Virus record (IMG/VR): IMGVR_UViG_3300044641_005618
From: a virus
Taxonomy: Duplodnaviria > Caudoviricetes
Strand: one strand, 5' to 3'
DNA: 64,000 bases
Shown here: one piece after another, positions 3,525 through 60,579 of the stretch
Numbering within the stretch: position 1 is the first letter of the stretch
Layout: each line of letters opens with the position of its first letter
Notes under the pieces: generated by a model
What the model was told of the DNA's origin: nothing
The model's input: the letters and a program-made list of their open reading frames with translations, nothing else
Databases searched by the model: none
Made by a program: the position numbers and the translations under genes

Positions 3525-4688
3525 TCACACCAACTTAAAAAAGTCTTTTTTCGACAGTTGAACAATAACACCCTTCGAGACAGACTCAATGGTCAGGTTT
3601 TCGTCAGTAACCCCAACCCCGTCAACTTTTACAGAGCCTGCCTTTATTTTACGTCGAGCCTCGCTTGTGCTTTCTACCAAATTGAGTGTTTTTAGGATGG
3701 TAGCTAGACGGCAGGGAAAATCCACTCCCTTAGTCGAAACTTCCGGCACGTTAACTTCAATTGTCTGTGAGAAAACAAGGGCCTCGGAGTCTTTCAGTGC
3801 CTTCAGAGCTTTCTCCCTTCCATGGAAGGTGGAGACGACTTCTACGGCCATTCGCTTCTGTCTTTCTCGAGGATTTTCCGGAAACTGATCCAGGTTGCAG
3901 TCGGTGAGGAGTGTAATGTAATCGTTAACCAATTGGTCCGGAACCTTCTCAAGTTTAGAGAACATTTGAAGTGGGTGTTCGTCGAGTCCAATGGCATTGT
4001 TCAGACTTTTGCTCATTTTTTGCACTCCGTCGGTGCCCGGTAGAATTGGCATTAGCATACCAACTTGCTGGACCGGTGAGTCGAAATGTTTTTGAACCTC
4101 TCTACCCAAGCCAACATTGAATTTCTGGTCAGTGCCACCGAGCTCTACGTCCGACTCTACATGAAAACTGTCGTACCCTTGGAGCAAAGGGTACATAAAC
4201 TCGTGTAGCCTAATCGGAGTTTGTAACTCAATGCGGTGTGCAAAATCTTGCTTTGCAATCATTTGCTGTACAGTTGTTATGGACTGAAGTTTAACAATGT
4301 CTGACAAGTGTAGGCACTCTAAATGGCTAGAGTTGAGAACCAGCTCACATTTTTCCAGGTTTACGAAGCGTGATATTGCTGTAATGAAGCTGTCAATGTT
4401 GGAATCTACTTCTTCTTTTGAAAGTTGCTTTCTTACCGAGGACTTTCCCGTGGGGTCCCCTATTCTTGCAGTGAAGTCACCAATAATGACAACGGGAATG
4501 TGGCCCTGGTCCTGAAAAGTCCGTAGCTTACGAAGAAGTACAGAATGCCCCAGATGCAAAAAGTTTGAGGTCGGGTCGAACCCAAGTTTTATCCTCTTCT
4601 GGGTCGTGAAAAAAGTATCGTCTGCTATTGCGGGAAAAGTGTCAATTATTCCACGGGTTAGGCTTGAAGGAGGTTTAGATGTGAACAT
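3525..4688 (-). CDS. tyrS: Tyrosine--tRNA ligase
   Basis: GFDPTSNFLHLGH (HIGH), KMSKS, DVELGGTDQKFN, C-terminal S4 domain; promoter at 4708 places start at ATG 4688 rather than 4796. Confidence 0.95.
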   Translation of the reverse strand: MFTSKPPSSLTRGIIDTFPAIADDTFFTTQKRIKLGFDPTSNFLHLGHSVLLRKLRTFQDQGHIPVVIIGDFTARIGDPTGKSSVRKQLSKEEVDSNIDSFITAISRFVNLEKCELVLNSSHLECLHLSDIVKLQSITTVQQMIAKQDFAHRIELQTPIRLHEFMYPLLQGYDSFHVESDVELGGTDQKFNVGLGREVQKHFDSPVQQVGMLMPILPGTDGVQKMSKSLNNAIGLDEHPLQMFSKLEKVPDQLVNDYITLLTDCNLDQFPENPRERQKRMAVEVVSTFHGREKALKALKDSEALVFSQTIEVNVPEVSTKGVDFPCRLATILKTLNLVESTSEARRKIKAGSVKVDGVGVTDENLTIESVSKGVIVQLSKKDFFKLV

Positions 4689-4707
4689 AGGCTTGGTGAT
4701 TAAACTA

Positions 4708-4750
4708 ACTATACCGTTTCTGCAGAGCAGAAACAAGACGGAAAACAGAA
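4708..4750 (-). promoter_or_regulatory. Composite hairpin-spacer promoter copy (tyrS)
   Basis: minus TTGTTT-17 nt-TATAGT with TTTCTGC-TCT-GCAGAAA dyad. Confidence 0.8.
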
Positions 4751-4805
4751 CGTTTAGGGCGGTTTGCCCCCCTAAAACTTTGCACGACCCTAACAACTCG
4801 AAAGA

Positions 4806-8687: not shown

Positions 8688-9797
8688 TCAGGAAATTCCG
8701 AGCAAAACGTCGAGCTTTTTCGGGGTTAAACCTTCGAGCCACTCTGCAAAGGATCCGACTTTGCCGGATCGAATCGCAAAGCATGCTCCAGAAAGTTCTT
8801 TTGACTCGGCAAGTACGGCTTGAGCGAAATCCTTCTGGTTAAGATGGTTGTGAGCCCTCATGTTCTCGCTCACCGCACTCTCCATCACTTCGATGGAACG
8901 CAGGTGAACGTCAAAACCCCTACGATACTCGGGAAAGTGAAGCAGAAACTCTTCCAAGTCGTCGTTCAGGAAAAGCTCGGAGAAATCCGGTTCTCCGTTT
9001 CCTTTAACCCTGTGCAACTGACAGTAGACGTTGGACTTGTCTTTCTGGCGGTTTCCGTTTCCGTCGACAATAATTACGCCTTCAGCGGTACCACGAGAAG
9101 AGTCGTTTACAAACTGGGTTACAGCTTCATGTGAGCGCAGGTCGTAGGTCTGAGCGAGATTGAATCGGTTCTCAAAGTACTTGAGATCCTTTTCGTTCAG
9201 GTCATCTATTACGCTACGGACAGTTAAGAGAGGTAAAAGGGGAGTCTCGTAGTCTACAACAATTTTGTTGTCTTTGTGGCACAATTCATAGATATACACG
9301 AAATTAGGGTCCAGGTCCACCCGCTCGTAGCCAACTTCGTCAAACACGTGCCAAAACAACTCGGAGAAGGAGCGACCCGTGGTTCCTACTTCCGAGGAAC
9401 CAGCGACTGAACCGGAGGTTGAAACTACCCAATCCCCCTTATAGCTAAACAACTTGATCAGAGACCCGTCATACTTCTCAGCTACACGGGCAGTGGACCA
9501 ATCAATCTCAGCGGCATACCCCTCGCCAACGTTGAAAAAGCGATCGAAGGCGTACGCAACCAGCCGAAAGTACGGGGAGCCCGTACCATCGTCAACGAGT
9601 TCGACTACGGCACCACGGCAGGCACGAACGATCGGCAGTGCCTTGTCCGCCATTACACTGCCGTACTTCAAGTTGTAGAGAGCAGGGTAACGTTCGTCGC
9701 GAGCAACACGAATGTCGTGTTCAGCGAGTGCTTCAAAAGCGGTCTCGACACGGTAGTTTAACCAGTCGATTAGAAAGTGGCGCAGGTTTATTTCCAT
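8688..9797 (-). CDS. T4 Rnl1-like RNA ligase
   Basis: Motif I EKYDGSLI, AFDRFFN, YELCH..N.IV, EGVII. Confidence 0.85.
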   Translation of the reverse strand: MEINLRHFLIDWLNYRVETAFEALAEHDIRVARDERYPALYNLKYGSVMADKALPIVRACRGAVVELVDDGTGSPYFRLVAYAFDRFFNVGEGYAAEIDWSTARVAEKYDGSLIKLFSYKGDWVVSTSGSVAGSSEVGTTGRSFSELFWHVFDEVGYERVDLDPNFVYIYELCHKDNKIVVDYETPLLPLLTVRSVIDDLNEKDLKYFENRFNLAQTYDLRSHEAVTQFVNDSSRGTAEGVIIVDGNGNRQKDKSNVYCQLHRVKGNGEPDFSELFLNDDLEEFLLHFPEYRRGFDVHLRSIEVMESAVSENMRAHNHLNQKDFAQAVLAESKELSGACFAIRSGKVGSFAEWLEGLTPKKLDVLLGIS

Positions 9798-15847: not shown

Positions 15848-17362
15848 CTAGGCCGCAGGGTAGAGAAGTCGAGTACGAATGTTAGGCAGTGAGTTTACGT
15901 CCTCCCCGTAGACCACGCTATTTAAGAACACGGTGCGAAGCTCACCTTGCTGCTCTTGCTCACGAGTCTGCTGTTGATGAAGGACAAAGTTCTCCCCATC
16001 CCTTTCAACTCGCAGTAGACCCAACGCCGACTTTTTCGTGCCGCTGTCTGTAATAGGGTCCTTCATAGTTTCAACGGCGACACCGTTAATTTGCCCCCAG
16101 GTCGTTTTGTATGCGATACCGAAAGTGTCCCGTGTATGGTATTGATAGGTGTAAGAACCGATACCAAACACAATGTTTTCGGACGCCCACCCAAGCTGCC
16201 TCATGTGCTCTAGGATGGCCCTGGCACGTGGAAGAGTGATCGAGTCGCCGTAAATTAAGCCAACTCGAGGGTTCAGTACCTTGAAACCCTTCTCGTTTAC
16301 CGTTCCTCCGAAGACCTCCCATAAAAGCTCAAGCGAGCCTTTGTACTCTCGGCTACCTGGATCAGCGTCAGCGTCACCGCAGATGATTTTCTCAGGGTCA
16401 CCACTGTCGGGACGGAAGACGACCTTGGCCAGCCCTAGCCCGTTTGGCTTACGGCTCAGAATATCTTCTTTCAGTTTGGGAGCAGTAACTGTGAGAGTGT
16501 CCCAGTAATTCCACGTGTCACTGACTACACTAATAACCCCCGAGGGGTAAACTTTCGAGATAATCCGGCGAATTGTCTCGACTTCGTTTTCCCGGCCTCC
16601 GAGGCAAGTTACACTGTGTTCTGTGGCGGGAACACTCCCCCCAATAAACTCGGAACCGCATTCGTAGTAATCTTCCAAGTAGTCAATGGAAAGGATTGTG
16701 TCCGTGCCCTTGAAGGAAAAAAGGTGGCCGATTTGGTGCGCAGCGGCATCGTGAATGCCTCCGACTCCGCGAGCGGAGAAGTCGTGCCCCTGAAAGTCAA
16801 CAAACTGCGGGTCACTCCCTGTGACTTCAGCGTAGTGGTCGAGAAGACGGCGAAACTCGTAAGCGATGGTTGCCACATTGATGGCCTTCCAAAGTTCCGA
16901 CGACTTGGCTGTTTCGACATAGTTGGTTAGCCACGGGGCCAGCCACTTAAACTCATTGTGAGTGTTTTGCGCCGTCAGAAACGGCACTCCAATGTTAACC
17001 CGGCTACCCTCAGGCAGAGCCTTTACGTGTAGCGGCATGTAGCCCAGGTCGTGAAGCTCAGCAATGTGGTCCGTGCCGACAACACCTTCTCCGAGCGAGG
17101 AGTCCATTCGCCGTTCGTACTTGTCTAACACTTTGGCCTTGGGTTGCTGGAAGAAGGTCTCATTCCAAAGGTCCCTAAGCATCCACTTCATTGTCCCTTG
17201 GACGTTCGCCACGACGATCTTGTGATCGAAGTCAGCGGGCATGTTCGCCAACCTGTCGGATCTTGCCGTCATATTGGCGTAGATTACCTCGGTGCCGTCT
17301 GGGTTTTGCGAAGGGTGTCCTGTCTTGTAAAAGTCGGTTGCGTGGGGCGCAAAAATTTTCAT
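15848..17362 (-). CDS. Nicotinamide phosphoribosyltransferase-like protein (Namat of a NARP1-type pair)
   Basis: TDFYKTGH, HDFSARG, SVPATEHS, SVVSDT, RPDSGDP, GLIYGDSIT. Confidence 0.9.
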   Translation of the reverse strand: MKIFAPHATDFYKTGHPSQNPDGTEVIYANMTARSDRLANMPADFDHKIVVANVQGTMKWMLRDLWNETFFQQPKAKVLDKYERRMDSSLGEGVVGTDHIAELHDLGYMPLHVKALPEGSRVNIGVPFLTAQNTHNEFKWLAPWLTNYVETAKSSELWKAINVATIAYEFRRLLDHYAEVTGSDPQFVDFQGHDFSARGVGGIHDAAAHQIGHLFSFKGTDTILSIDYLEDYYECGSEFIGGSVPATEHSVTCLGGRENEVETIRRIISKVYPSGVISVVSDTWNYWDTLTVTAPKLKEDILSRKPNGLGLAKVVFRPDSGDPEKIICGDADADPGSREYKGSLELLWEVFGGTVNEKGFKVLNPRVGLIYGDSITLPRARAILEHMRQLGWASENIVFGIGSYTYQYHTRDTFGIAYKTTWGQINGVAVETMKDPITDSGTKKSALGLLRVERDGENFVLHQQQTREQEQQGELRTVFLNSVVYGEDVNSLPNIRTRLLYPAA

Positions 17363-18300
17363 GGTTGGTTGCGGGGGGTGGGGTAGTTTTCGGTGCGAAG
17401 GTAGGTCAAGCTCGAGGGTAACTCTTGGTAAAAGTTTTTATAAGGGAGCAAGTTAGCAACGTGAAAGTTGTCGATTAAGCCCCCAAACACTTTAAAACCC
17501 TTGGAGAAAATTCCGTGAGTTACATAGAGGTCAATTCGAGACGGATCGAACTGACGCAGAACCTTGGCGAGTTCGATAAAGGTGCGACCACCGTCGCAGA
17601 TGTCGTCCACAATCAGAAGGTTTTTGCCCTTGTAACTGACGTCTTCTGGAACTTCCGTCCTTAGGATTTGCCCGTCTTCGGGGTTGCGAACTTTCGTAGC
17701 GTACACTACAGAGTGGAGTCCCAGTGCTTGTTGAACGAGGGTTGCTCTTTCGACTGCACCTTTGTCCGGAGCAATCACAATTGTCTTAGCACTAAACTCT
17801 TCCCCCCGGTCTTTGAACTTCTGGAGAAACAGTTGGGGTTGTAGGTTGTTGAACTCGCAGCCGATTTCGGTTCGAAAGAGCTCATTTGCAACGTGGCTGT
17901 GCACGTCCCATGTGTACACCCTATCGCCTACCCCGTCAAGGTAGGGTGCGAGAGCTTTTACAAAAGTTCTTAGCGAAAACGCTTCCCCTTCAGCACACTG
18001 GCGGTCTTGGCGGCTATAAGGTAAGTACGGGATGTTCAATTGTAGACTTCGCAGCACAGGAAGGTCTTTGATGGCCGACAGAGTCAGAAGAAGTTCGGCG
18101 AAACTTTCTCCGCTGTGTATGTCTGCGTCTACGATAATGTCCGTCGAACTCGTGGGAGTGTCATGCAACCGGACCTGCCTTTCACCGGCACTAAACGTAA
18201 AGGAGGTCTTTGAAATCTTGTACAGGTTTTGACCGTCACGATTCAAGTAAACCTCGATCGGCTCTGTTTTCTGATACTCTTTAGTTTTGGTCACGTGCAT
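17359..18300 (-). CDS. Ribose-phosphate pyrophosphokinase-like protein (Adps of a NARP1-type pair)
   Basis: FSAGERQV, PYLPYSRQDR, APDKGA, LIVDDICDGGRTF; 4-bp overlap with Nampt gene. Confidence 0.9.
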   Translation of the reverse strand: MHVTKTKEYQKTEPIEVYLNRDGQNLYKISKTSFTFSAGERQVRLHDTPTSSTDIIVDADIHSGESFAELLLTLSAIKDLPVLRSLQLNIPYLPYSRQDRQCAEGEAFSLRTFVKALAPYLDGVGDRVYTWDVHSHVANELFRTEIGCEFNNLQPQLFLQKFKDRGEEFSAKTIVIAPDKGAVERATLVQQALGLHSVVYATKVRNPEDGQILRTEVPEDVSYKGKNLLIVDDICDGGRTFIELAKVLRQFDPSRIDLYVTHGIFSKGFKVFGGLIDNFHVANLLPYKNFYQELPSSLTYLRTENYPTPRNQP

Positions 18301-18383
18301 TGTTGTTTTACGGTGTGAGCTTACTATAGCTTGTTTGGGTGCGAGGGTAAAGGACGGTTTCCCGCCGCGTACGGGGGGTGAAA

Positions 18384-18704
18384 CTAGACCGTATACCCAC
18401 TTCCGCTGCACTCGTACGGTAAGTCCTGCAGTACTCGATAGAAAAGCTCACGATATGCCTCGAAGGCGATCCTATTCATCCACAACACGCCGGATACCTG
18501 TATCCCGAGAGACTCTGCAAATTCTTTCGCAGTTGAACGAAGGTAGCAGTCTCCAATCGCCCCGTCTCTCTCAAACTGCTCGTAGTCTTCGATTAGTTGT
18601 TGGAGGTTTTGCTTGGTCAGTGCGTTAATTCTGTCTCTAAGGGGTGTCATTGGGTTTGCTCCGGCAAGGTAGTTTCTGAAAGCTTTCAGCGGGGTGTTTT
18701 CCAT
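18384..18704 (-). CDS. Hypothetical protein
   Basis: ATG below promoter at 18711. Confidence 0.65.
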   Translation of the reverse strand: MENTPLKAFRNYLAGANPMTPLRDRINALTKQNLQQLIEDYEQFERDGAIGDCYLRSTAKEFAESLGIQVSGVLWMNRIAFEAYRELFYRVLQDLPYECSGSGYTV

Positions 18705-23609: not shown

Positions 23610-24491
23610 TTAAGTAAGGGTATTATACGTTATTTCAGAGTAGAAACAAGGGGGGGAAACCGCCCCAAACGAAAGGTCGTACAAAGTGCTTGCTATGAGC
23701 AAAAGTCTTTCACTGTCGTGCAACCCTGAAATCCACCGCTTTGGTATAGCCTTATACCCGTAGTAAGCACCCGCTAGCTGCCCCGTAATCGCAGCAACCG
23801 TGTCTGAGTCGTCCCCATAGTTCACAGCCTGCAGGATGGCCTCTTTAAAGGACGAAGTTGACCCAAAGTGGTAGAGAGCAGCGTCTAAGGACTTCGGTGC
23901 GTACCCGGAATTTTCAATTCCCTCCGGCGAGACTTCAGGTTTCTCCCCCGTACCATTCAAGTATCGGTGCAGCAAACGACCGAGATCTTTGCATAGGTCG
24001 GATGCCAAGTGGCCATGGGTTGTTGAGGATGACGCGTCACAAGCTGCTACAGCGTCCCCCTCACTCGATTTGTGGTAAACAATAGAAACGGGGGACAAAC
24101 GCATCAAAGACCCGTTTCCTTTCGAATTCTCCGGATAGAGACTCAAAGACCCCTCAACGAGAAAAGTCTCAATTGCACGGAGTGTTCCATTGCCGATGTC
24201 AAAACAGACTCCTGTTGAGCTGTTCCTTCCGTACTCGTACCAGTTGGAGTACCGACGCATTTGGTCTCCAAGATTGATCTGCCCATTGCAATGAATAAAA
24301 GACTCGGCAAGGCAAACAGCCTGCGATGTGTCGTCCGTCCAGTACCCTGAAGGCAGATTAAAGGGTCCTCCTTCTCGGTAGCCTGTGACTGGCTCGAATG
24401 TCCCTGGGGCTGAAAACTCCACTGGCGCACCCATCGCGTCACCAATTGCAAGGCCAATAAAGGCTCCGAGGCATTTGTCAAAAGTTGTCAT
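23610..24491 (-). CDS. ADP-ribosylglycohydrolase (DraG/ARH family)
   Basis: GLAIGDAMGAP, WTDDT, GNGSLMR, GDDSDTVAAITG. Confidence 0.92.
   Translation of the reverse strand: MTTFDKCLGAFIGLAIGDAMGAPVEFSAPGTFEPVTGYREGGPFNLPSGYWTDDTSQAVCLAESFIHCNGQINLGDQMRRYSNWYEYGRNSSTGVCFDIGNGTLRAIETFLVEGSLSLYPENSKGNGSLMRLSPVSIVYHKSSEGDAVAACDASSSTTHGHLASDLCKDLGRLLHRYLNGTGEKPEVSPEGIENSGYAPKSLDAALYHFGSTSSFKEAILQAVNYGDDSDTVAAITGQLAGAYYGYKAIPKRWISGLHDSERLLLIASTLYDLSFGAVSPPCFYSEITYNTLT
23621..23666 (-). promoter_or_regulatory. Degenerate composite promoter copy
   Basis: plus: attatacg..agaaacaaggggggg aaaccgcccc. Confidence 0.6.
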
Positions 24492-24727
24492 TTTTCCAAG
24501 TTGGTTTAAGAGGAGTGAACGGACCTGAGCTATTTGCGGGGAGCAAGGTAGCACTAAGAAACAGTGGCCTTACACTCTACACAAGTGCGATGCTCCCGCT
24601 CCCTTGAGTCGTAGGCTCCTAGACCTGGTGTAGACTGACCGGGAAGTACGTTGCCCCACGTGTAGGTTGGGGACCCGCACCAGGGGCAGGCGGTTGAGTC
24701 TAAAATCAACGAGGATAGCATTCGATG

Positions 24728-26052: not shown

Positions 26053-26109
26053 AGTGTTTCAGCGTGGGTTGGAGTGTAGGGTGCTGTTTTGGCCAGGAAA
26101 GTTGGCGGT

Positions 26110-26430
26110 GTAAGGGGGCCGAAACCCCCCGAGTTATGAGTCAGAGTGCGGTTGCTCAAACGGCAACGGCAATCCTCTCGAATTTGACGATGTTGTTAGC
26201 GTCTATTTTGTGCTTATGCAAGCGGCTTTCACTCAGGCGACATCTTTACCCTAGCGAGACCATGGCACCCCCTTGACTAGAGGTGGGAGTTTAACCCACA
26301 GTGACCCTGCCTTCTCAGTAAGTCGGAAGGTTGAAGAAGGGACGGTCACGTTCTCAAATGGAGGTGAGGGGATTCGAACCCCTGTATAGGGCACTATCTT
26401 CCAGAGCTACCCCTAGTTTAGAGTCGTATG
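26110..26430 (-). ncRNA. ssrA: Circularly permuted (two-piece) tmRNA
   Basis: T-arm and 3' acceptor CAGGGGTTCGAATCCCCT-CACCTCCA end at 26359; 86-nt intervening segment; 5' GGGGGTG starts 26272 (G3.U70); tag ANNIVKFERIAVAV* at 26200-26156. Confidence 0.9.
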
Positions 26431-26444
26431 GTAGGACTGTCCGC

Positions 26445-26642
26445 CTAATAAACTCCTATTCTTAGCCCACTCGTTTCAGGGGCGGGAGTTGACCACGAGC
26501 TTACCCCTATGCAAGCTCCGGACGGTAAATTGAGTTGTAGGTATTCTCCGCAGTGTGAGCCCTGGTAATCTTTAACCTCTAAGTAAGAGTAGCTCAGAAT
26601 GTCTCCGTTTTCTACCAACTTTTCTAGGTCTCCTTCAGTCAT
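26445..26642 (-). CDS. Hypothetical protein
   Basis: ORF track. Confidence 0.55.
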   Translation of the reverse strand: MTEGDLEKLVENGDILSYSYLEVKDYQGSHCGEYLQLNLPSGACIGVSSWSTPAPETSGLRIGVY

Positions 26643-28134: not shown

Positions 28135-28623
28135 TCAGGTGAAGGAAGGCTCAAGGAGCAACGACAGCATTTCCTGTATGGTCGCGTAGATGGGATCTTC
28201 AACTGTAAAGGCGAACTTTTCGGTTGCCTTGTCGTCAATCCACTCTCTCACTCCTGTTCCGAACTCGGTGGACCTTGCGTACCAATCGCAAACCATCTCC
28301 GCGACGTAAACTTTGGGCATGTCGTGAATGCTCCCCCAGTATTCAGGGTGGTGCGGGTTTACTGACTGGTGGTGTTTTACGACTTCGGACAGCAAGGGGT
28401 CTGAGTGAAAAAGGTGTGCAAACTCAATTCCCTTGAACTTTGAATTGTCATGGATCTGCCCGTTTGCGATTAAGTTGCGCCCCAGCTCAATGTCGCCACG
28501 TTTCATTAGCTTCAGGCCAAGCTTGTAACAGCTCCTCTGCACGTTTTTTATGTGGGAGAAAACCAACTCAATTTTTTCGACGGCTTCAGTCTCAATTGTC
28601 ATGTGAGTAGTAAGCATTCGCAC
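28135..28623 (-). CDS. DUF5662-like (HD-related) protein
   Basis: HIKNV, HDNSKF, HH..N.HHPEYW, EMVCDW. Confidence 0.7.
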   Translation of the reverse strand: MRMLTTHMTIETEAVEKIELVFSHIKNVQRSCYKLGLKLMKRGDIELGRNLIANGQIHDNSKFKGIEFAHLFHSDPLLSEVVKHHQSVNPHHPEYWGSIHDMPKVYVAEMVCDWYARSTEFGTGVREWIDDKATEKFAFTVEDPIYATIQEMLSLLLEPSFT

Positions 28624-28644: not shown

Positions 28645-29787
28645 TCACCGGTGCTCAATACAACCGAGACTTTGAAATTTTTCCACAGTCTCAGCGCAGA
28701 GGGTATTGATGAGTTGGTCATCTACCGTGCTCGGTAAGACGCACTCGTTCTTCATTACGTGCTCAGCCTCCTTAAACAGTTGAGTTACAATTGAGCTTAG
28801 TTCGTCATACGTAATCCTGCCGTACTTAATGTCCAGAAGAAACTCTGCGTCCCCAACCAACTTTCTGTTCACAAGAAGCTCTCCGGTTCTCATCCCCTCA
28901 ATGGCCATCTTCATAAGCCGAACACAGTGGCTGGCGTTCTTGCCGTCGTACCCGCAAGCTCGCTCGACTTCGGATCGCTTCACATTCCGATTAGTCAACC
29001 AATCTTGGTAATTACTCCACCGTTTTAAATCTGACCGGTACTGCTGGCTTGAGTGAAGAAGGGCCATGTACTCGTCACTTGCCCTCGTGATTTTCTGCGT
29101 CTCGTCGAAGCACTCTTCCGGTAAGACACTCTGCTTCAGGATTCCCTTCCAATCAACTCGGTCGTTGAGTAACTCGTACAGCTCGACTGAAGGCTGGTAG
29201 TATTCGATTCTGTCTTTAATCAGCAAGTACAAGTACTCAATGAATGACTCGATTTGAGAGGGGGTTAAGCTCGGCGAAGAAACCCCGTAGTCCTCCCACG
29301 TCGGTCGCCGTGTTGGAGGGTTTAAGAGCCACTTGCGGTGAGTCTCCATTTTCTTGATCTGGGACCTTGCGTACTGAACGAATGTGCCAGAGATTCTCTT
29401 GGAAATGAGCTTCCTTCGGTTATCAATTAGCGACTGCCCCAGAAAGTCAAGGTATAGGTAGCTTTCGGGAGTTTGCCACAGCATCTCCAAAATGTTTGGG
29501 TTTTGCGACCGCAACAAGCTTAGGTACCTGCGAATGCCGTACACAACTGAGTCGGAATTGTCTAACTCAGGGAATCTTGAGTTAAACTCACCCTCGTCGT
29601 GTTGCTCCCCTGCCCACCCTTTATCCTTTTGCTCAAATGTTTCGAGAGTGGTGTAAAACCGCTGTGGCGCAACACAGATGCCCTTAAAGTCCAGGTCAGA
29701 CATCTCGGTGTTGAGGCCATAGGCGTGGCTGCCTGACTTGCAAAACAGGATCATCCCGTCTTCAATTTCTTTTCGTGTAATTGTCAT
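28645..29787 (-). CDS. Pol-beta superfamily nucleotidyltransferase (RlaP/PF10127-like)
   Basis: GSHAYGLNTEMSDLDFKGI; C-terminal YDGKNASHCVRL. Confidence 0.85.
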   Translation of the reverse strand: MTITRKEIEDGMILFCKSGSHAYGLNTEMSDLDFKGICVAPQRFYTTLETFEQKDKGWAGEQHDEGEFNSRFPELDNSDSVVYGIRRYLSLLRSQNPNILEMLWQTPESYLYLDFLGQSLIDNRRKLISKRISGTFVQYARSQIKKMETHRKWLLNPPTRRPTWEDYGVSSPSLTPSQIESFIEYLYLLIKDRIEYYQPSVELYELLNDRVDWKGILKQSVLPEECFDETQKITRASDEYMALLHSSQQYRSDLKRWSNYQDWLTNRNVKRSEVERACGYDGKNASHCVRLMKMAIEGMRTGELLVNRKLVGDAEFLLDIKYGRITYDELSSIVTQLFKEAEHVMKNECVLPSTVDDQLINTLCAETVEKFQSLGCIEHR

Positions 29788-47902: not shown

Positions 47903-48226
47903 TCAACATTTAATCCTGGTGGTCGATGTACGATCTTCTCCGTGCGCCGTATGGTGCCCCGACTCTGGACACGTGGATTCACTCTGTGGCACCCCCCACT
48001 TGTAAGGAGGGCGCTCTACCGCTGAGCTAACCGAGTGTATATTTGGTGAGTGAAGCCTATTTAGGGCTTCTTGTTCTTTCGGACCACTAAAGGAAGGGTC
48101 AATCTCGTGGTAGAAAACCATACTCAAGTGGTTTTGGATCGTTTCAACTTGCGTCGGTGTGAGTGTGACCGGTTCGGCAAGCTCGAAGAATCCTTGAAGC
48201 CAGTAGCAAAAGTCGCGTGATTTCAC
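47903..48226 (-). CDS. WLQGF-family hypothetical protein (contains a tRNA-half copy)
   Basis: MKSRDFCYWLQGFFE. Confidence 0.7.
   Translation of the reverse strand: MKSRDFCYWLQGFFELAEPVTLTPTQVETIQNHLSMVFYHEIDPSFSGPKEQEALNRLHSPNIHSVSSAVERPPYKWGVPQSESTCPESGHHTAHGEDRTSTTRIKC
47995..48038 (-). repeat. 44-bp exact copy of the 5' half of tRNA-Val(TAC)
   Basis: Identical to 54953-54996. Confidence 0.9.
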
Positions 48227-59775: not shown

Positions 59776-59849
59776 TGGCGGACCGGGGAATTGAACCCCT
59801 GTTCCTCTGGGTTATGGGCCCAGCGTGACTACCGTGACACTCGTCCGCG
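59776..59849 (-). tRNA. Initiator-type tRNA-fMet(CAT)
   Basis: 1:72 mismatch (C.C), three G-C pairs in anticodon stem, loop CCCATAA. Confidence 0.8.
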
Positions 59850-60045: not shown

Positions 60046-60164
60046 GGAGCAAGGTTGGACTTGAACCAACGGCTTGCTTTGCCCTCCAGCGTTACGGTCC
60101 TTTACCGAGGCTTTCCTTAGAAAGCCTGAGGAGGTTGCCGCTCTACCAACTGAGCTACTTGCTC
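60046..60164 (-). ncRNA. tRNA-framed RNA A (119 nt, 69-nt multi-hairpin in place of anticodon arm)
   Basis: Acceptor GAGCAAG/CTTGCTC, canonical D-arm, T-arm GTTGG-TTCAAGT-CCAAC. Confidence 0.75.
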
Positions 60165-60441: not shown

Positions 60442-60529
60442 CGGAGAGAACAGGAATCGAACCTGCGCAGGGGGTCTCCCCCCTGTAACCGTTTTCAAGA
60501 CGGTCTCCTCGTCCAGCCGGACTCTCTCC
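60442..60529 (-). tRNA. tRNA-Ser(TGA)
   Basis: Class II; loop CTTGAAA. Confidence 0.92.
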
Positions 60530-60579
60530 AATTACCATAACACGGTAAGTTTGTAGCTAGAAAACCGAAAGGTTTTCAA

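Follow-up and report, generated by a model that had tools for sequence, protein, structure and literature searches.

A circularly permuted tmRNA gene with a valine-ended tag in a large freshwater cyanophage

Does a large lake phage encode an RNA of its own for ribosome rescue, and if so, what would the phage do with it? The question is raised by a stretch of 64,000 nucleotides from the IMG/VR virus record IMGVR_UViG_3300044641_005618 (Duplodnaviria; Caudoviricetes), hereafter the window, in which a first reading of the letters alone, the original prediction, placed at positions 26110-26430 a phage-encoded, circularly permuted two-piece transfer-messenger RNA (tmRNA) with a cyanobacterial-type tag. 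A tmRNA is an RNA that releases ribosomes that have stalled. In phages such genes seldom receive an annotation, and to our knowledge no advantage of one to a phage has been demonstrated. The analysis presented here indicates that the locus is very probably a working ssrA gene of the permuted form, carried by a large freshwater cyanophage and acting in the manner set out below. It is mostly an ordinary find, its unusual traits being a tag that ends in valine and a long spacer between the two pieces.

ARAGORN analysis reports a circularly permuted tmRNA with the tag ANNIVKFERIAVAV on the minus strand at ~26065-26448, while RNA contigs and conservation suggest ~26072-26445 as the extent of the gene; all the parts described below lie on this strand. 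The Rfam model tmRNA_permuted (RF04321) is matched from end to end (model positions 1-213) at 26156-26414, with 68.1 bits for a cut-off of 47 and an E-value of 5.6e-11 for the whole window. The acceptor piece (26359-26445), delimited by sequence and by covariation in 10 phage relatives, corresponds to the 3' half of the tRNA-like domain. It comprises a 5' hairpin (26438-26422), supported by sequence and covariation, strands of the long-range helix P2, the T arm AGGGG/UUCGAAU/CCCCU (26383-26367), which has 5 base pairs and a 7-nt loop, the acceptor 3' strand CACCUCC (26366-26360), and the discriminator A (26359). As UUU follows A26359, the CCA end is not encoded. An intervening segment of 86 nt, the spacer (26273-26358), is delimited by its folds and by alignment with the Synechococcus phage S-CBWM1. 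The coding piece (26072-26272) is delimited by sequence and covariation, its 3' end near 26072 being only hinted at by a head-to-tail contig in one RNA run. It starts with the acceptor 5' strand GGGGGUG (26272-26266), which completes a 7-bp acceptor stem with a G3.U70 pair (26270 with 26362), and also carries strands of P2. Along this strand the T arm and the acceptor 3' strand thus come before the acceptor 5' strand and the tag, which is the permuted order. The resume codon GCU at 26200, 72 nt after G1, opens the tag reading frame reported by ARAGORN (26156-26200), made up of 14 codons and a UGA stop codon (26158-26156). A small invariant hairpin, seen in the alignment of phage relatives, precedes the tag (26223-26212), and helix 5, predicted by RNAalifold, covers 26138-26179, with the stop codon in the loop of its inner stem (26167-26163 paired with 26155-26151). 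The last element of the cyano_tmRNA model (RF01851), a GC-rich 3'-terminal hairpin without a U tract, is found at 26113-26130. Read on the minus strand, all the coordinates of the original prediction are right, including the exact tag frame followed by a GC hairpin, and the stem that it wrote as GGGGGTG/CACCTCC-A is present with its G.U pair.

Is this arrangement kept in other genomes? Pattern scans of viral and metagenome collections, together with a structural search (T arm, acceptor stem, G3.U70), return a clade of 13 distinct genes on contigs from lake viruses and metagenomes, the longest of 279 kb, the carriers being phage genomes of 139-279 kb. Two-strand minimum-energy folding gave no tmRNA fold, and covariation was used for the structure instead. 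RNAalifold analysis of ten of the 13 genes predicts 61 pairs, 23 of which are kept through two-sided changes. Of the seven pairs in the acceptor stem, four covary, as does every one of the five in the T arm. Covariation is also seen in helix P2, the long-range helix that would hold both pieces together, in the acceptor piece's 5' hairpin, and in helix 5, where it affects the inner stem (columns 286/298 read UA, CG, AU and GC). Five different acceptor stems occur across the clade, and yet G3.U70 is the same in the ten aligned genes and unvaried in further full genes too. Given the same gene with compensatory changes in relatives, its occurrence is far beyond chance. ARAGORN misses six members of the clade, which have the acceptor stem GGGUCCG/CGGAUCC: L034 (a 279-kb contig with terminal repeats), L037, L039, L040, L041, and L015. 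The structural search reports the full tRNA-like domain in L015, L034, and L037, the printed sequences of L039, L040, and L041 match it, and L015 is also found by RF04321 (55.8 bits). A subgroup (L012, L033, L038, and L162) has a non-canonical T loop, in which GGCAGUA or GGCAGUU replaces UUCGAAU, with G3.U70 and the tag kept. A search of cellular genomes with 18-mers returned only chance matches in unrelated taxa, and nine viral 18-mer matches outside tmRNA genes are likewise due to chance, eight coming from one unrelated phage family and the ninth (L014) being separate.

Is the gene the phage's own? The nearest record, G001, is a viral contig of 277,244 bp (98% complete) that bears the same tmRNA and encodes a large terminase and a psbA-type (Photo_RC) reaction-centre gene (284 bits). 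The sole match in the isolate phage collection is S-CBWM1, with 77.6% identity over the alignable part. These features of G001 and the match with S-CBWM1 make the gene phage-borne and its phage a cyanophage: the carrier is a freshwater (lake) cyanophage of ~277-280 kb akin to S-CBWM1. In S-CBWM1 itself, the psbA-type gene (G273:C1:111309-112992) returns Photo_RC matches in two pieces ~780 nt apart, as if interrupted.

The gene could still be a functionless passenger, that is, either a decaying copy of a host tmRNA, acquired through recombination or imprecise excision, or the remnant of an attachment site. tmRNA genes are indeed common integration sites and their fragments are found in prophages (PMC9004378), degraded second copies exist in the picocyanobacterial family Cyanobiaceae (L177-L179), and the RF01851 score of the window gene is below threshold. 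We nevertheless regard this explanation as very improbable. The gene is complete, and in a tree of phage and cellular tmRNA genes the phage clade (support 100/99) falls on a long branch outside all 30 distinct cellular sequences, with the Cyanobiaceae forming a clade of their own (100/95). The phage clade spans genomes of 139-279 kb with compensatory changes, and in its member L174, a close strain of the window, the mature parts show 0 differences over 239 positions at a flank divergence of 5.3%. The tree, although its 225 columns and an outgroup chosen by tag similarity leave the depth of the split uncertain, points to an old phage-resident lineage and not to a recent capture.

What is being conserved in this lineage? 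Among nine aligned Val-ended relatives, the tag varies at one site in first codon positions, at two in second, and at seven in third, and all nine end in the same GUU-UGA. Together with the compensatory pairing changes, this third-position bias indicates that selection acts on the RNA in two capacities, as a tRNA mimic and as a message, which counts against a relic or a pure decoy. A decoy would be an RNA that titrates host SmpB (or AlaRS or EF-Tu) and so shuts down the host's own trans-translation, the tag frame being irrelevant, by analogy with mycobacteriophage DS6A. The precedent is real: a DS6A-like molecule made of the tRNA-like domain only strongly inhibits tmRNA, perhaps via SmpB titration (PMC4131195), and the same is stated for the DS6A form in E. 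coli (PMC11915505). The lack of a phage SmpB and the subgroup with the non-canonical T loop are also compatible with such a role. However, a decoy would need no reading frame, and yet the frame of 14 codons persists, its changes falling mostly on third positions. The stop codon remains in the loop of helix 5, where covariation is seen, and the context of the resume codon is maintained along with the 72-nt spacing. We therefore hold the decoy to be unlikely.

A translated tmRNA needs SmpB, and the original prediction had noticed no smpB gene in the window. Indeed, tblastn with two Cyanobiaceae SmpB proteins as queries gives a best E-value of 0.4 in the window, and no SmpB-family gene is found in G001, in S-CBWM1 (G273), in the complete 279-kb relative G274, or in the fragment G272, three of these four records being at least 98% complete. 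A domain of the RF-1/ArfB type is likewise absent from G001, G273, and G274. As the phage has no SmpB, that of the host must serve, and both Cyanobiaceae genomes tested encode one. As to which host, RF01851 was surveyed in 151 genomes across Cyanobacteriota and then in 121 genomes of one small-genome family: the cut-off is passed in only two of the 151, as against 104 of the 121 genomes of the family to which those two belong, with genomes of 1-4 Mb and the tag ANNIVRFSRQ.APVAA, which we take to be the Cyanobiaceae. The concentration of RF01851 in this family, the G1-to-resume distance of 72 nt that it shares with the window gene, and the recorded host of S-CBWM1, Synechococcus sp. CBW1002, support indirectly, without proving it, the picocyanobacterial host originally proposed, which is the best inference for this uncultured lake phage.

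If we assume such a host, the gene would work as follows. A single precursor would be transcribed, and host tRNA-processing enzymes would cut it after A26359, where CCA would then be added, and also before G26272. The 86-nt spacer would be discarded, and the ~85-nt acceptor piece and the ~200-nt coding piece would stay joined by the 7-bp acceptor stem and by P2. The host alanyl-tRNA synthetase would charge the RNA via G3.U70, and host SmpB and EF-Tu would bring it to ribosomes stalled on broken messages, on which translation would resume at GCU and add ANNIVKFERIAVAV. The likely benefit would be that ribosomes are kept free while host RNA synthesis fails and mRNAs are cut, which fits the at least 33 tRNAs, the tyrosyl-tRNA synthetase, and the RNA ligase of the phage. 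Trans-translation that depends on host SmpB during infection is, in our estimate, highly likely, nearly as much so as a working gene in general.

Do RNA data bear on the splitting into two pieces? The functional product would necessarily be in two pieces, since the gene lacks an encoded CCA and has its acceptor 3' strand inside the transcript, so that charging could take place only after cutting; of the original two-piece claim, the permuted gene order is established, and the physical split into two RNAs is inferred. The RNA data consist of assembled lake metatranscriptome contigs, whose ends, spans, and uncovered flanks cannot establish processing. Contigs from four lake studies cover the gene, and those in three runs, from three studies, stop at 26427-26445, at its 5' edge, without entering the upstream ORFs, which is a weak hint that the RNA has its 5' end there. 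In one run (X1), U26072 and A26273, the base just before G1, are linked by a 60-nt contig; it has a depth of 2, with 30 nt on each side of the junction, and the tool does not list it as a joint. A 201-nt contig covering 26072-26273 closes it into a cycle in the assembly graph, and the junction is that of a 202-nt RNA joined head to tail. The junction sequence does not occur in the DNA collections, viral or metagenomic, which argues weakly against a tandem variant of the DNA. This contig, a lead only, may represent a circular coding piece, template switching by reverse transcriptase, or an assembly artefact; a circle or a template switch would place RNA ends at ~26272/26273 and 26072.

Several observations weigh against the proposed working gene. 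The window gene reaches only 58 bits with RF01851 (over 26114-26439), below the cut-off of 70, so that of the two Rfam models, RF04321 recognizes it and RF01851 does not; the low score is mainly due to 83 nt in the window gene where the model has 9, and the sister phage genes L006 (76 bits) and S-CBWM1 (123 bits) score higher. A consensus scan reports no promoter-like or terminator-like site adjoining the gene. The Cyanobiaceae genes score 274-326 bits with RF01851 and the phage genes 58-123, the phage RNA thus being far from any sampled host tmRNA, and at this distance compatibility with host SmpB has to be assumed. The tag ends in valine, as first noticed from the sequence, whereas 54 of 54 cellular cyanobacterial tags end in alanine. 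Two contigs, from runs X3 and X4, cross the whole spacer without a break, and may be precursor RNA or contaminating DNA. Finally, cleavage, charging, tagging, and benefit are all inferred.

Why is the spacer so long? In 31 genes of the Cyanobiaceae the spacer measures 6-46 nt, and most of the phage genes have one of 6-29 nt, those of 82-86 nt being found only in the window's type and in L015; the clade as a whole spans 6-86 nt with fixed mature ends. The extra length with respect to S-CBWM1 is a single insertion of ~70 nt that resembles a tRNA arm. Going by standard tRNA processing, the spacer would be bounded by cuts of RNase Z and RNase P. The fold announced by the original prediction (GUGACC/GGUCAC and CCUUCU/AGAAGG) is recovered along with a third hairpin, at -26.8 kcal/mol and a z-score of only -2.1. 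The spacers of the window and of L015 (z-scores of -2.1 and -2.7) both exhibit a short closing stem, a long hairpin, and a hairpin with a 5-bp stem and a 7-nt loop, and the outer stem of the long hairpin shows two pairing-preserving double changes between them. The T-arm-like hairpin (26299-26283, minus strand) has 3 mismatches with the T arm of the phage's own tRNA-Lys, and its counterpart in L015 a single one, as read from the printed sequences. Known families do not account for this segment: Rfam searches at E-values of up to 10 return only noise for the window spacer. The L015 spacer draws manA at 10.3 bits, where the cut-off is 55.2, and YrlA at 10.9, but no tRNA. No manA RNA is found in G001 or G272-G274 by a search that was positive in no control genome either. 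A repeated mobile element was also considered and rejected, G001 having one copy only, and the hairpin pattern is restricted to three tmRNA loci in the viral collection. Nor is the spacer a conserved small gene: the 32-codon frame of the window starts with GTG, L174 has GTT at the start and a 1-nt deletion, and L015 has no matching frame.

One strain that bears on the spacer is L174 (metagenome contig Ga0214163_1014935), 94.65% identical to the window over 2.3 kb. Its 11 differences over the 86 spacer positions, as against none over the 239 mature ones (Fisher p = 2.7e-7), count indirectly for the two-piece model, in which the spacer is free to vary since it is discarded. The same pattern counts against a strongly constrained function of the insertion, and several of the L174 changes break the spacer fold. 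In L003, L009, and L165, with flanks ~10% diverged, the spacer is identical to that of the window. Constraint on the spacer appears inconsistent across strains, and the pattern of spacer versus flanks suggests recombination patches.

What does the valine end do? The tag ANNIVKFERIAVAV has 14 residues, starts with ANNIV like cellular cyanobacterial tags, as the original prediction had stated, and carries KFER in place of the cellular RFSRQ. It is closest to the 14-residue tags of one-piece cyanobacterial genes, e.g. ANNIVKFERVAVAA, although the structure of those genes is different throughout, and we take the likeness to reflect shared ancestry or convergence of a short peptide. Within the clade, 11 of the 13 tags end in Val, one in Ile (L162, ...TAVAI), and one, that of S-CBWM1, in Ala. 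One explanation is that rescue has been re-tuned, the Val/Ile end making a poor ClpXP/ClpAP substrate or a handle for another factor, so that truncated, mostly phage, proteins are spared or rerouted. The contrast between 12 Val/Ile tags out of 13 in the clade and the alanine of all 54 cellular tags and of three T4-like cyanophage tags is in its favour, as is the near identity of the rest of the tag with the cellular ANNIVKFERVAVAA, which confines the change to the last residue. Reporter levels in Synechocystis fall less with ssrA variants ending in -AAV or -ASV than with -LVA, a ranking also found in E. coli, and Val-ended variants are thus weaker degrons there (PMC2860132). Nevertheless, these variants are still degraded in both organisms (PMC2860132), so that a non-degradative role exceeds the data; S-CBWM1, of the same clade, is Ala-ended; and no phage protease or adaptor is identified adjoining the gene. 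Such a re-tuning is conceivable, with perhaps one chance in four by our reckoning. As for the effect of the Val end as such, we give a weaker degron about an even chance and divide the remainder equally between a degron equivalent to the cellular one and a redirected or non-degradative signal, the likeliest reading being that the Val end is probably an attenuated but working degradation signal. If tagging occurs, the tagged-peptide ends to expect are (A)NNIVKFERIAVAV or ANKIVKFERTAVAV.

A bolder interpretation joins the peculiarities of the tag, the spacer, and the head-to-tail contig, and would make the clade tmRNA a tool specific to the phage in as many as three respects. The Val/Ile tag would be an adaptive change of the fate of rescued proteins, by slower or redirected proteolysis; the spacer would be a cargo slot, releasing an ~85-nt tRNA-arm-like small RNA with defined ends; and the coding piece would be circularised, perhaps by the phage RNA ligase, as the single head-to-tail contig might hint. 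As a whole, this interpretation is doubtful, somewhat more so than re-tuning by the tag end.

How does the gene relate to tmRNAs already known? The phage tmRNAs listed in 2014 were one-piece only (PMC4131195), and the original prediction, by which two-piece tmRNAs are not well described in phages, is out of date in this respect. Buchholz et al. (2022) reported tmRNAs in 402 of 18,146 phage genomes, with 133 unique structures, of which 53 are two-piece by ARAGORN, 50 of these coming from aquatic phages (PMC9004378). Their Table S1 lists S-CBWM1, S-CAM1, S-CAM3, S-CRM01, S-SSM7, and S-SSM6a as permuted, and the legend of their Fig. 5 describes the cyanobacterial tmRNA lineage as shared with cyanophages (PMC9004378); a cyanobacterial permuted lineage is also named in PMC11915505. 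Two-piece tmRNA in a cyanophage is already on record, and the window gene is not new in kind. We found no description in the searchable literature of the Val/Ile-ended freshwater clade, of the tRNA-arm-like spacer insertion, or of the possible circular form.

The closest known gene is that of S-CBWM1 (Aokuangvirus; NC_048106, ~23885-24202), a member of the same phage clade. It shares with the window gene the acceptor stem GGGGGUG/CACCUCC, the 72-nt G1-to-resume distance, the invariant hairpin before the tag, a tRNA-rich region, and the lack of a phage smpB. It differs by a spacer of only 17 nt, a 15-residue Ala-ended tag, ANKIVAFHRQAVSCA, and an RF01851 score that passes the cut-off. The S-CBWM1 gene lies in an annotation gap, with no RNA feature between gp33 and gp34. 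In the public records of S-CBWM1 (L001 4001-4318), S-SSM7 (L180 540-891), S-CAM1 (L181 546-860), and Sf-FS3 (L182 544-871), the permuted tmRNA is not annotated as RNA, and in S-SSM7 a 'hypothetical protein' coding sequence, SSSM7_025, is called over the tmRNA gene. The T4-like cyanophages of the Kyanoviridae (S-SSM7, S-CAM1, and Sf-FS3) have permuted genes of the cyanobacterial type, often beside tRNA genes (RF01851 scores of 109-143 bits), and S-CAM3 and S-SSM6a were also matched. In contrast with the window gene, to which the phage collection search detects no nucleotide similarity in them, their tags keep ANNIVAFSR and an Ala end, and their hosts are marine Synechococcus.

The comparison with host ssrA, another of the checks suggested, brings out both kinship and distance. 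The two-piece tmRNA of marine and freshwater picocyanobacteria (RF01851, the Cyanobiaceae type), of the lineage also named in PMC9004378, has the permuted order, the 5' and terminal hairpins, a CCA that is not encoded, and the ANNIV tag start in common with the window gene, and the G1-to-resume distance is 72 nt in 29 of 31 Cyanobiaceae genes and 73 nt in two, as compared with 98-101 nt in one-piece genes. The tag, the acceptor stem, and the tree position differ, the Cyanobiaceae having a single acceptor stem, GGGGCUG/CAGCUCC, in 31 of 31 genes and a tag of 16 residues. Cyanobiaceae chromosomes also contain second, degraded permuted copies of the host type (L177 in G159:C11, L178 in G189:C1, and L179 in G166:C8; 66-168 bits), one with the T arm deleted and one 3 kb from the intact gene, which are probably remnants of island integration; considered as a possible link to the host, they were set aside, being of the host type and not of the phage type. 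The one-piece tmRNAs of Pleurocapsales, Allocoleopsis, Stenomitos, and diatom spheroid bodies carry tags nearly identical to that of the window (ANNIVKFERVAVAA or ANKIVKFERAAVAA) but are unpermuted, form a separate clade in the tree, and are all Ala-ended. Lastly, the Methylophilales phage Melnitz and the pelagimyophages are aquatic myophages with a permuted ssrA of their own, for which ribosome rescue or selective tagging has been proposed (PMC9004378). Theirs is of the alphaproteobacterial type, in some cases with a glutamine riboswitch in the 3' domain; Rfam reports none in the window.

The surroundings of the gene are rich in functions related to tRNA and RNA. ARAGORN reports 33 tRNA genes in the window, all on the strand of the tmRNA. 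Profile matches on the same strand identify a tyrosyl-tRNA synthetase (phrog_9270, E 7.5e-76), an RNA ligase resembling T4 Rnl1 (phrog_562), an RlaP 'RNA repair pathway' nucleotidyltransferase (PF10127), and a DUF5662 protein, listed jointly at 3525-4796, 8688-9797, 28645-29787, and 28135-28623. Aminoacyl-tRNA synthetases are uncommon in phages. A second joint listing on this strand (15848-18411 and 23610-24554) comprises the NAD salvage pair formed by nicotinamide phosphoribosyltransferase (NAMPT) and ribose-phosphate pyrophosphokinase (PRPP synthetase), plus an ADP-ribosylglycohydrolase. Rfam adds tRNA matches that ARAGORN does not report, also on the minus strand and of odd lengths (119 nt, 57 nt), at 60046-60164, 47980-48036, and 59776-59849, and its tRNA-Sec match at 60442-60530 is the tRNA-Ser(tga) of ARAGORN.

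What, then, does the find mean for these phages? In practical terms, it puts an annotation right, lends support to picocyanobacteria as hosts of an uncultured lake phage of 280 kb, and reveals that ARAGORN overlooks some genes of the clade. For biology, the clade is a natural experiment, in which a tag like the cellular ones save for its last residue is found in an RNA under strong selection, and a cultured relative exists in S-CBWM1 on Synechococcus CBW1002. If it is true that the Val end alters proteolysis, these phages would edit a protein-quality-control signal of their host and not merely borrow it.

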